From Escherichia coli O157:H7 (lineage in GTDB: Bacteria > Pseudomonadota > Gammaproteobacteria > Enterobacterales > Enterobacteriaceae): a DNA stretch of 64,000 bases. Positions within the stretch are counted from its first letter, which is position 1, and every line of letters begins with the position of its first letter. Made by a program: the position numbers. Below, piece after piece: positions 61,601 through 64,000 of this stretch. The stretch is taken from NCBI RefSeq assembly GCF_013167455.1, contig NZ_CP038328.1. One strand, written 5' to 3'.

Positions 61601-64000
61601 GGATAAGCGCCGTCGTGACCTGGACAATATCCTGAAAGCACCACTGGATGTGCTGACGCATGCCGGACTTCTCATAGACGACGAGCAGTTTGATGAAATC
61701 AATATTGTGCGCGGTCAGCTCGTTCCTGGTGAGCGGCTGGGGATAAAAATCACAGAACTGGAGTGCGCATGAATAACCACTATTTACAGTTTGTGCGTGA
61801 GCAGCTCATTATCGCCACCGCTGATTTGAGTGGGGCAACAAAAGGTCAGCTTGAAGCCTGGCAGGAGAATGCCATGTTCGATACAGGGCGTTACAGGCGA
61901 AAAAAAATCCGGTACCGCGATGAAGTGACTGGAAAAATGATAACGCGGGATAATCCACCAATCCCGGGAAAGCAATCGCTGGCGAAGGTGACGTCAATTC
62001 CTCTGGTCAGTCCGGTTGAGTTTTCGACATCATCGTGGCGGCGGGCTGTTCTGTCTCTTGAAGAACATCATAAAGCCTGGTTGTTGTGGTGTTACAGCGG
62101 GAGTATTTGTTGGGAATATCAGATCGCGATAACACAGTGGGCGTGGAATGAATTTAATACTCAATCCGGTACCAGAAAAATTGCAGGGAAAACGCAGGAA
62201 CGCCTGAAAAAATTAATCTGGCTGGCGGCGCAGGCAGTAAAAGCAGAACTTTTTGGTGGGGAAGGTTATGAATACAAGGAGCTGGCATTACTGGTGGGAG
62301 TGACAACTAAAAACTGGTCCAAAACATTTACTCGTCACTGGGTTGCAATGAAACACATTTTTCACCGACTGGATAGTGAGGCTTTATTGTTTGTAATGAG
62401 AACGCGTTCAAAACAAAAGGCGGCATTTTCAAAGCAAAGTGTTGCAAAAGTAGATTGAAAGGCATATATTTCATGCAAATCTGATATTTTGCCGATTTTG
62501 TACGTGATGGCAAAAGCAAACAAAACCCGCCCACAAGCGGGTTTTTTTGTGCCACTTATCTCGGATAGACATGGTGAATGCGCTGGTGGAGGAAGTAAGG
62601 GTAATTTTTAACCAGGTGATTCTTGAATGCTTGCAACATTGATTTCGTAACGTTATTATCCTGCGCCCGGCCCTTTAGCTCAGTGGTGAGAGCGAGCGAC
62701 TCATAATCGCCAGGCCGCTGGTTCAAATCCAGCAAGGGCCACCATCACATACCGCCATTAGCTCATCGGGATAGAACGCCAGCCTTCGAAGCTGGTTTCG
62801 CGGGGTTCGAGTCTCCGATGGCGGTCCATTATCGGTATTCTGCGTTTTTAGCTCAGCAGGACAGAGCAATTGCCTTCTAAGCAATCGGTCACTGGTTCGA
62901 CTCCAGTACAACGCGCCACACTTATTTTCCCGGCTCGCTTTTGCGGGCCTTTTTTGTATCTGCGCCACGCCCGGCACATACCAACCACAGAGCCTTTCGG
63001 GGGGGGGGAGCTTACGGAGTGGTCAGTGTGACTTTCTCTGTGGGCAGATCGCTCCCGGGCGTTGGCTCACCCACCCAAAGGAACGTCACGATGTTTGGTA
63101 TTTTTGGTAAAAAAAGCCCGCAGAGCGGCAACGGAAATTAAAAAGTTTGAAAAACGCGATCTGGCACAGGTGGTGATTAACGCCGCATACCTGGTGGCCT
63201 GTGCAGATGGTGAATGTGAGGCATCCGAGAAAGCGAAGATCGAACAGGTACTGCGTAATCAGCCTGCGCTGTCCGCGTTTACGTCAGAAATTAATGCGAT
63301 TAGCGCAACCATTATCGGTCAGCTGGATACGAACTTTAAAACTGGTCGTCGTGCGGCGTTACGTGAGATCGAGGATGTGAAACACGATACGCGTGAAGCG
63401 GAAGATGTGCTGGATGTGGCGGTGGCCATTGCGGAGGCAGACGGCGAAATTGAGCCGGAAGAGCGCAAGGTGCTGGAAGAGATTGCCGGTGTTCTGGGTC
63501 TTCGTCTGGAGAATCACCTGTGACGGTAAAACTGCGCCTGACTGTGGCTGCACTCCTGCTGTTTCTGGTGGTGATGGTGGATTTCACCAGCAGAATCATG
63601 TCGGTGCTGGCGGATGGGGTGCTGGTCTGCGGCATTGTGGTATTGCTGTGGCCGGTGATAAAAAGAAACAGCCTGCATAATGCTTGATTTTTTTGTTTGC
63701 TGTTTATTAAAAACACTTCTGCATGGTGAATCCCCCTGTGCGGAGGGGCGATCAGCAAGAAGGTATATGGGATAATCGCGGATTCAGGTGCTGGTACTGA
63801 ATTCACCGGGAGGCACCCGGCACCATGCTTTGCCACAAAAGTGTTATTTCTGTTTTTCTCAAACTATCATCGTTATCCCTTTATTTCCGGCTGCGCATGG
63901 CGCGGCCTTTTTTTTACGACCAGCCACTGGCAGATGGTCATCCTGTGATTTGATTCCGGTTCCGGCTTTTTAACTCTGTTCCTGTACACGGGAGAAATTC

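Follow-up and report, generated by a model that had tools for sequence, protein, structure and literature searches.

A widespread A7 frameshift allele of tciA, probably decaying, in the tciA/tciB cargo pair of Escherichia coli O157:H7 prophage Sp12

Results and discussion

We analysed a 736-bp cassette, consisting of a leader and the genes tciA and tciB, at positions 62967-63702 (plus strand) of prophage Sp12 in Escherichia coli O157:H7; the window, i.e., the whole stretch of DNA under analysis, was 64,000 nucleotides long. The cassette carries an already known and named phage gene pair, tciA/tciB, in the Q-dependent late cargo slot of the prophage. The reading that we favour, with a probability of roughly 0.7, is that a run of seven adenines (A7) near the start of tciA is a fixed and old lesion, and that tciA is inactivated or strongly attenuated and drifting. 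As a known pair with a decaying allele the finding is largely ordinary, and its value lies mostly in clarifying the annotation; the real gap is the role of the intact tciA/tciB pair, for which the alleles with six adenines (A6) are the relevant ones.

Location of the cassette in the late region of Sp12

The late antiterminator gene Q of Sp12 was located at 61769-62458 of the plus strand from the ORF list and the RefSeq annotation of an identical O157:H7 locus. A promoter scan and inspection of the sequence placed a pR'-like promoter (62442-62470) and, 3' of Q, a tR'-like hairpin with a T-run (62522-62551) in the plus-strand segment 62442-62551, where positions 62475-62547 also gave a weak isrK-like match (Rfam isrK, 22.7 bits, under its gathering score). 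Next on the same strand came the tRNA trio ileZ (Ile2, CAT), argN (TCG) and argO (TCT) at 62669-62918, found by ARAGORN, Rfam tRNA and the RefSeq and Sakai annotations; ARAGORN called the first of the three Met(CAT), whereas RefSeq and Sakai give it as tRNA-Ile2 ileZ. The tRNA genes were followed by a terminator-like hairpin and T-run at 62932-62956, plus strand (terminator scan, hairpin 62932-62949), which according to the alignments is found too in Stx phages and in phage JLK-2012.

In alignments with the Stx2a phage WGPS6, homology extended over 62602-62966, broke off, and was resumed from 63703; between the same two junctions the Stx2a phage had 1,370 bp with stx2A/B, so that the cassette sits where that phage carries stx2AB. 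A stx-type cargo slot after Q and the tRNA trio had been proposed in the original prediction, and these junctions (62966/63703) support it. The right flank of the cassette, 48 nt, matched many Stx phages. Directly 3' of tciB, and straddling the right junction, was an element of the STnc100 sRNA family (63692-63864, plus strand; 101.8 bits for Rfam RF02076, whose gathering score is 47). The stxAB cassette of Stx-converting phages thus shares with that of Sp12 the insertion point after Q, ileZ-argN-argO and the common hairpin and, on the 3' side, an STnc100-like element and the nanS-p esterase gene; the cargo of Sp12 is, in contrast, unrelated, carries no toxin and is shorter (736 bp vs 1,370 bp). 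Knowing exactly where a toxin-free cassette in this slot begins and ends (62967-63702) helps to picture cargo exchange there.

The TerB-domain protein TciA and its partner TciB

A TerB body with a PF05099 match is encoded in the +1 frame of the window. The protein obtained by correcting the run to A6 matched Pfam TerB (PF05099) over residues 31-138 with an i-Evalue of 2.8e-11, and the TerB structure 2JXU_A with E=2.9e-07 (query 15-137 vs chain 21-144); the family had been predicted from the sequence, with a Pfam search as the proposed check, and both searches bore the assignment out. PHROG 632 covered residues 1-143 of 143 in the A6-corrected protein only; tciA of the window fails this full-length TciA family match, since the A7 run throws the conserved start out of frame. 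Two acidic motifs of the form D-G-x5-E were present, ADGECEASE (residues 38-46) and ADGEIEPEE (115-123), and D39, G40, E46 and E124 were invariant across nine phage homologues. AlphaFold modelled TciA as a helical bundle of six helices (pLDDT 86.4), with residues 1-11 disordered. The best Foldseek match in the PDB was 2H5N (PG1108), with a probability of 1.00 but E=0.012 and a TM score of 0.52-0.59; 2JXU was not retrieved.

The gene tciB (63520-63687, plus strand) encodes a 55-aa DUF3927 protein with two transmembrane segments (Pfam DUF3927, 3.7e-17; PHROG 1470, TciB-like, 5.6e-30). Its GTG start at 63520 overlaps the TGA stop of tciA (63521-63523) in the sequence GTGA, and it has a GGAG of its own 8 nt upstream; the coupled small membrane protein of the original prediction is thereby substantiated. 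ORFs of the tciB type abutting tciA were kept in P1, ChrisDB, Klebsiella phage 5 and SP-076. As for a third gene, a 31-aa ORF at 63680-63775 was not similar to P1 TciC, and nothing like TciC was present after tciB.

The closest known system is the tciA-tciB-tciC operon of phage P1 (PHROG 632/1470), in which a TerB-domain protein of ~141-143 aa with the N-terminus MxGxxKKK is likewise directly followed by an overlapping gene for a DUF3927 two-transmembrane protein, next to phage tRNA genes. P1 TciA was ~40% identical to the corrected protein. The two systems differ in that P1 TciC, a 35-aa peptide with a single transmembrane segment, has no equivalent in Sp12, and in that the Sp12 pair lies in a lambdoid late-operon slot and its first gene is frameshifted. 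The name of P1 tciA derives from homology only, and a CRISPRi screen of P1 found the gene non-essential (PMC10695390, PMC9603915). With TerB of the terZABCDE system (Klebsiella TerB, 2JXU), TciA shares the PF05099 family, the two acidic ADGxxxxxE motifs and, as modelled, an all-helical build. The Sp12 gene differs from it in having a 55-aa DUF3927 protein as partner and no ter genes among its neighbours (Q, the tRNAs, tciB and the esterase gene).

The literature search found no report of tellurite, colicin or phage resistance for this gene, and no functional study under DUF3927, ECs2265, WP_001303509 or TerB with lambdoid/antiterminator. The module had been described at the outset as not characterised; this holds for experimental function in the literature searched, but not for identity, as the P1 pair is named and Sakai ECs_2265 is annotated as 'TciA/TerB-like protein'. 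Membership in a defence system was rejected, PADLOC giving only a weak partial match to PDC-S48 (E=0.0058), and the only NCBIfam matches, DjlA and YmfL, were both sub-threshold.

In its intact A6 form the cassette would yield two products from one late transcript: a 143-aa cytoplasmic protein, all-helical, with a TerB domain and a flexible, conserved N-terminal tail, MFGxFxKK, and the 55-aa two-transmembrane partner, which would be translated by coupling at the GTGA overlap. The pair was kept in P1-like, lambdoid, N4-like and jumbo phages, and from its conservation in temperate and virulent enterobacterial phages alike we infer that its site of action is most likely the inner membrane, where it would serve the phage in lytic growth, perhaps with the N-terminal tail of TciA docked at the membrane.

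The frameshift at the A7 run

The Shine-Dalgarno sequence AAAGGAA (63077-63083, plus strand), conserved in JLK-2012 and Evi, serves the ATG at 63091 and, at longer spacing, a TTG at 63095. The good ribosome binding site and ATG of the original prediction, with the N-terminus MFGIFGKK, were therefore recovered. The motif MFGxFxKK was conserved in homologues from P1 and from Erwinia, Klebsiella, Pseudomonas and Salmonella phages. In the window, translation from this ancestral start gives MFGIFGKKSPQSGNGN and ends at 63139-63141, a 16-codon out-of-frame remnant (MFGIFGKKSPQSGNGN*) at 63091-63141 of the plus strand. The A7 run itself (63109-63115, plus strand) has one A more than the A6 of in-frame homologues, as seen in the alignment and the population counts, and the TerB body follows in the +1 frame up to the TGA at 63521-63523. 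The predicted displacement of the TerB body by A7 is thus a real +1A relative to in-frame A6 homologues. In-frame reading from the ATG was seen in the alignment for JLK-2012 (A6) and Evi (interrupted tract), and A6 relatives read straight through to a 143-aa protein.

Runs of at least seven A or T are common in the window (21 in 64 kb, A7/T7 runs among them). The frameshift is nevertheless more than a chance effect of such a run, because removal of one A puts the TerB body in frame with an N-terminal motif conserved across eight phage homologues, and because in-frame A6 relatives exist. A sequencing artefact was ruled out by the presence of A7 in the Sanger-sequenced Sakai genome and in hundreds of assemblies.

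The extra A severs the conserved ATG from the TerB body, so that ribosomes starting at the ATG would yield only a 16-aa peptide, and a TerB protein could arise from the A7 allele only if ribosomes start weakly at TTG 63095 or if slippage, a rare event, occurs; it is on these grounds that we consider tciA inactivated or strongly attenuated. The TTG lies four bases 3' of the ATG, at a spacing of 12 nt from the Shine-Dalgarno sequence, and its product would begin MVFLVKK; initiation there is possible and probably weak. RefSeq and Sakai annotate the tciA body from this TTG, as a 142-aa protein at 63095-63523 of the plus strand (WP_001303509.1 / ECs_2265). This RefSeq model is a rescue call of the annotation pipeline. 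Because pipelines rescue the frameshifted allele through the TTG in this way, presence/absence surveys of prophage cargo overstate the number of functional tciA copies. A further start, TTG 63062 (153 aa), had been named as one that might really be used; it has no Shine-Dalgarno sequence, annotators do not use it, and the exact 153-aa protein was absent among ~15 billion proteins.

Distribution of tract lengths

The A7 run was present in the window, E32511, 86-24 (6564), Sakai and EDL933. With one best-matching place counted per genome among 5,426 complete genomes, 548 complete E. coli genomes had exact A7, 3 had A6 within the same local sequence and none had A8, these counts coming from consensus assemblies, which cannot reveal low-frequency subpopulations. 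A7 is the commonest E. coli allele, carried by 548 of the 678 complete genomes with the tciA start region. An exact protein look-up placed the TTG-start (A7) protein on at least 993 contigs and the A6-corrected protein on 4.

One of the readings offered at the outset was that the tract makes the module phase-variable or slippage-dependent, and several observations would agree with a contingency gene in which it toggles tciA at high frequency: the homopolymer falls within codons 7-9, tracts of A5, A6 and A7 are each found in relatives, A6 was found on the A7 haplotype in three complete genomes, and two isogenic 86-24 derivatives differ in it. As in the contingency genes of Neisseria, Haemophilus and Campylobacter, a mononucleotide run in the first codons sets the frame; unlike theirs, the tciA tract is short (A7) and fixed over hundreds of genomes. 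Both the genome counts and the contig counts given above speak against toggling, and tract length tracks the haplotype group and is not variable within one. Derivative 6565 (A6) and its sibling 6564 (A7) differed over 14 kb by four homopolymer indels of 1 nt and by nothing else, and the A6 of 6565 looks like an assembly error; the pair was rejected as proof of switching because the other differences are 1-nt indels in T4/T5 homopolymers, discrepancies typical of such errors. Phase variation is largely refuted at the population level, and we regard it as extremely unlikely.

Age and drift of the A7 allele

Judged from the sequences compared, A7 is a fixed, old, widely spread and decaying lesion and no switch. 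It occurred in only 16 tciA-body haplotypes, related to one another, and A7 copies lay behind four different tRNA arrays. A second lesion, E45 to TAG, was present in 31 of the 49 sampled A7 copies, which do not amount to 31 independent losses because the stop probably arose once and then spread; the haplotype with A7 and the E45 stop was found exactly in 147 complete genomes, and the copy in the window is free of that stop. Private substitutions in A7 copies (6 nonsynonymous, 4 synonymous) were compatible with neutrality (p=0.27), and those in A6 copies (6 nonsynonymous, 16 synonymous) pointed to purifying selection (p=2e-6), the contrast between the two sets not being significant on its own (Fisher p=0.12). 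The diversified copies, the several tRNA arrays and the frequent second nonsense lesion do not fit a freshly inactivated gene, as had also been suggested. Sp12 is a defective, decaying prophage, with an integrase pseudogene and a frameshifted DUF1627 gene, and tciA would be drifting like others of its genes.

The module may remain partly functional, because 45 of 47 A7 copies retained an intact tciB, a gene that carries a Shine-Dalgarno sequence of its own. It could even be that tciA works as annotated, TTG 63095 giving a 142-aa TciA with an altered tip and nothing being inactivated. PGAP and Sakai call this ORF without a pseudogene flag, the start is 12 nt from the Shine-Dalgarno sequence, the body of the window copy is intact, and the allele is very common. 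A working TTG-initiated protein is conceivable because the Shine-Dalgarno sequence is common to both starts and the new tip is again hydrophobic and then basic, on a tail (residues 1-11) predicted to be disordered. Against this, the MFGxFxKK tip, which is conserved between P1 and phages of Erwinia, Pseudomonas and Salmonella, would be lost, the better-spaced ATG 4 nt upstream competes, most sampled A7 copies tolerate a stop at residue 45, and private substitutions in A7 copies appear neutral. We consider such a functional A7 allele rather unlikely.

Programmed recoding would instead make the run a device for deliberately low TciA levels, either by transcriptional slippage on A7 yielding A6 mRNAs or by a +1 shift of tRNA-Lys on A-AAA-AAA. 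Bacterial slippage at runs of A has precedent, re-pairing of tRNA-Lys from AAA to AAA is possible in the +1 frame of this sequence, and A7 was strictly conserved across a diversified group of copies. However, seven adenines are short for efficient slippage of RNA polymerase, the run is followed neither by a stimulatory stop nor by a rare codon (the next codon is AGC) nor by significant structure, and the purifying selection on in-frame A6 relatives implies that recoding is not required in the family; the stop farther 3' in 31/49 A7 copies also speaks against selection for a recoded product. Recoding therefore appears very improbable. Somewhat less remote, though still improbable, is that A7 is a selected low-expression variant, with traces of TciA made through the weak TTG or rare slippage and TciB translated from its own Shine-Dalgarno sequence; if true, attenuation would account for A7, and not the in-frame A6, prevailing in EHEC prophages.

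A variable poly-G tract in the leader

The non-coding leader of the cassette contains a poly-G tract, G10 at 62999-63008 (plus strand), the only run of G or C in the window to exceed 6. The promoter scan detected near 62999 no sigma-70-like promoter with the poly-G in its spacer, and the predicted fold of the leader (62957-63125) was not significant (z = -1.36). The proposal that homopolymer tracts gate the module found no support in this tract, whose length varies between strains without a promoter-like site or a significant RNA fold. The hypervariable poly-G may tune expression. At the same Sp12 locus it measured G10, G11/G12, G13 or G14 across strains, and in IMG/VR copies it ranged from G5 to G12.

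Location of the tciA/tciB cassette in prophage Sp12

The window corresponds from base 1 to ~48.3 kb to the chromosomal malY-to-ynfA region, and past that point to the left arm of a lambda-like prophage, Sp12 in the Sakai genome labelling. Within this arm, Q ends at 62458 and is followed by a hairpin with a T-run, three tRNA genes at 62669-62918 (ileZ, i.e., Ile2 with a CAT anticodon, argN and argO in the RefSeq and Sakai annotations) and a second hairpin at 62932-62949. Next come a G10 tract (62999-63008), a Shine-Dalgarno (SD) sequence AAAGGAA (63077-63083), the ATG start of tciA (63091) and an A7 run (63109-63115). 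The TerB body lies in the +1 frame with respect to the ATG and ends at 63523, and the 55-aa ORF of tciB extends from a GTG at 63520 to 63687, the GTG overlapping the TerB-frame stop (GTGA). Every feature listed in the original prediction was thus present where it had been placed, which confirmed the sequence observation; the interpretation was partly supported, since gene identity, coupling, slot and frameshift stood, and phase variation, programmed slippage and recent inactivation did not. Dozens of O157:H7 chromosomes matched the 801 bases around tciA/tciB at 100% identity.

The position had been named as the one where Stx phages carry their toxin genes, and this was right. Homology with the Stx2a phage WGPS6 covered the tRNAs and the shared hairpin up to 62966, broke, and restarted at 63703, delimiting a cassette of 62967-63702; between the same two points WGPS6 carries stx2A and stx2B instead of tciA/tciB. 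The right-edge 48 bases of the cassette matched more than 130 Stx-phage records. A strong Rfam STnc100 match (63692-63864; 101.8 bits, gathering score 47), starting 5 nt past the tciB stop, spans this right junction common to Stx phages; the conserved element that directly follows the stx/tciAB slot is therefore a described sRNA family. A nanS-p-type esterase gene comes next, just past the window end. At 62475-62547 Rfam also gave a weak isrK-like hit that stayed under the gathering score (22.7 bits). It lies on the short transcript running from pR' to the terminator behind Q, the same place as the lambda 6S/StxS-type RNA (PMC7547250).

Identity of the gene pair

Searches were made with a corrected tciA, the window gene minus one A, encoding a 143-aa protein. 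As predicted, it belonged to the TerB family: it matched the Pfam TerB HMM (2.8e-11), the solved Klebsiella TerB structure 2JXU (2.9e-07) and, over its full length (1-143/143), PHROG 632 'tellurite resistance' (2.5e-68). Its AlphaFold model was a six-helix bundle (pLDDT 86) with the first 11 residues disordered, and the closest solved fold was PG1108 (2H5N), with modest scores. The second gene, predicted to encode a translationally coupled small membrane protein, matched Pfam DUF3927 (3.7e-17) and PHROG 1470 'TciB-like', and its 55-aa product has two hydrophobic segments, in agreement with that prediction. These matches identify the pair as the tciA/tciB module named first in phage P1, whose TciA is ~40% identical to the corrected product; the Sakai annotation of ECs_2265 reads 'TciA/TerB-like protein'. 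The gene pair is therefore already known and annotated, and the allele in the window is the common decayed one. The P1 names were assigned only from homology to TerB, and a CRISPRi screen scored both genes of P1 as non-essential (PMC9603915, PMC10695390). For the EHEC copies, the literature searched yielded no functional study.

Full-length TciA relatives were found by tblastn in 129 phage records, including P1/P7/D6, Erwinia jumbo, Klebsiella lambdoid, N4-like Salmonella, Vibrio and Pseudomonas phages. In an alignment of nine homologues the N-terminal tip was kept (MFGIFGKK, MLGILKKK, MFGFLKKR, MFNLFKKK, MFGLFKKK and similar) and two acidic DG...E motifs were invariant. Abutting or overlapping tciA, P1, Erwinia phage ChrisDB, Klebsiella phage 5 (unannotated there) and Salmonella phage SP-076 all have a short ORF for a two-TM protein bearing the motif DFTS..S.L.DG.LV...WP. 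This conservation leads us to infer a soluble TerB-domain TciA that works with a small inner-membrane partner. The pair also occurs in virulent phages and so is probably of use to the phage in lytic growth rather than a lysogen-only trait. The pair directly adjoins phage tRNA genes in unrelated phages: Asn and Thr upstream and Ile2 downstream in P1 (616-2276 of the extracted locus); Trp and Cys upstream and Tyr, Gln, Ile and Met downstream in the jumbo phage ChrisDB (886-3277); Asn, Thr and Gly in phage JLK-2012 (2237-3231); and Ile2, Arg and Arg in the window prophage (62669-62918). This adjacency may reflect no more than a common placement in the 'cargo zone'.

The frameshift in tciA

The ATG frame of the window tciA encodes merely MFGIFGKKSPQSGNGN before a stop. 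In JLK-2012 the corresponding sequence is GGT-AAAAAA-GCC (A6) and the ATG opens a 143-aa frame annotated as tciA; in phage Evi the A tract is interrupted (AAAAAGAAAA) and tciA is likewise in frame. Relative to these working relatives the window thus has a +1A insertion, which severs the conserved N-terminal tip from the TerB body.

One reading of this frameshift was a phase-variable switch. When complete E. coli genomes were searched for exact matches to the 91-94 nt around the A tract, 548 had A7, three had A6 in the same local sequence and none had A8, which argues against switching. Exact matches in a collection of 15 billion proteins placed the TTG-start 142-aa protein (A7) on at least 993 contigs and the A6-corrected 143-aa protein on four. 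The orthologous Sp12 locus had A7 in 4/4 further assemblies: E32511, 86-24 (derivative 6564), Sanger-sequenced Sakai and EDL933. Of the three genomes with A6, one is that of 6565, a 'mutant' derivative of strain 86-24 with an isogenic sibling, 6564, that is A7. Over 14 kb the two differed solely by four 1-nt homopolymer indels (G12/G11, A6/A7, T4/T5 and T5/T4), one of which makes tciA in 6565 look intact (WP_070479924.1). Such a pattern is typical of errors in long-read assembly; we rejected the A6/A7 difference as biology, and the case cautions against taking homopolymer differences between long-read assemblies as such.

Age of the A7 allele

An IMG/VR scan returned 96 tciA copies, to which the window and two reference loci were added. 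Tract length was A7 in 49 copies, A6 in 46 and A5 in two; it tracked haplotype, and no haplotype was common to the A7 and A6 groups. All A7 copies fell in a single set of 16 related sequences of the tciA body, with 0-15 differences from the window (26-33 in most A6 copies), and were preceded by four tRNA arrays (Ile2/Arg/Arg, Ile2/Arg, Ile2/Lys/Arg and Ile2 alone). A GAG-to-TAG stop at residue 45, within the first DG...E motif, was present in 31/49 of them, and this nonsense haplotype was exact in 147 complete genomes. The number of haplotypes, the tRNA arrays and the second lesion all speak against the suggestion that the gene was freshly inactivated. Substitutions private to A7 (6 nonsynonymous, 4 synonymous) were compatible with neutrality (p=0.27) and those private to A6 (6 and 16) were far from neutral (p=2e-6); as the direct contrast was not significant (p=0.12), this evidence is supportive and not decisive. 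The main in-frame A6 haplotype was exact in only 88 complete genomes, and in no O157:H7 strain among the genome rows sampled. Three IMG/VR copies (L007, L073 and L058) were decayed variants: the two A5 copies, with unrelated sequence after ~50 nt of the gene, and an AAAAAG copy with an early stop.

Putative products of the A7 allele and the poly-G tract

RefSeq/PGAP and Sakai model tciA, with no pseudogene flag, as 142 aa from TTG 63095, four bases past the ATG (WP_001303509.1, ECs_2265; 63095-63523). This product would start MVFLVKK, again hydrophobic and then basic. The TTG lies 12 nt and the ATG 8 nt from their common SD, and an overlapping TTG at poor spacing should lose to an ATG at good spacing, so that little TerB-frame product is expected from the A7 allele. 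For the ATG to lead into the TerB frame, either a +1 shift or a transcript with A6 is required. Programmed slippage was not supported: a run of seven A is short for slippage to be efficient, AGC follows as the next codon and is neither rare nor a stop, and folding of the leader gave nothing significant (z -1.36). tciB is intact in 45/47 A7 copies and is preceded at 8 nt by a GGAG of its own, and for these reasons TciB may still be made.

The G10 tract sits in the non-coding leader; no other G/C run in the 64-kb window exceeds 6. At the Sp12 locus it was G10 in the window and E32511, G11/G12 in 86-24, G13 in Sakai and G14 in EDL933; it ranged from G5 to G12 among IMG/VR copies and was interrupted in in-frame relatives such as JLK-2012 (GGGGGTGAG). 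The proposal that homopolymer tracts gate the module was not supported for this tract: it varies, yet no promoter-like site spanning it was found in the window leader and the leader fold lacked significance. We interpret its variation as neutral slippage made to look larger by homopolymer sequencing error, which may account for part of the spread.

Other lesions in the region

Prophage Sp12 around tciA is itself decaying: its integrase is a truncated, frameshifted pseudogene (about 48.4-52 kb) and its DUF1627 gene is frameshifted (57461-58230). In strain E32511 an IS1203 interrupts the exonuclease gene; the window lacks this element. In the chromosomal part, uidA and uidC (about 7711-9524 and 10933-12197 of the window) carry annotated frameshifts in a near-identical O157:H7 genome. 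The window aligned to that genome gap-free over 48,335 nt and therefore shares both lesions, of which the one in uidA is a known trait of O157:H7.
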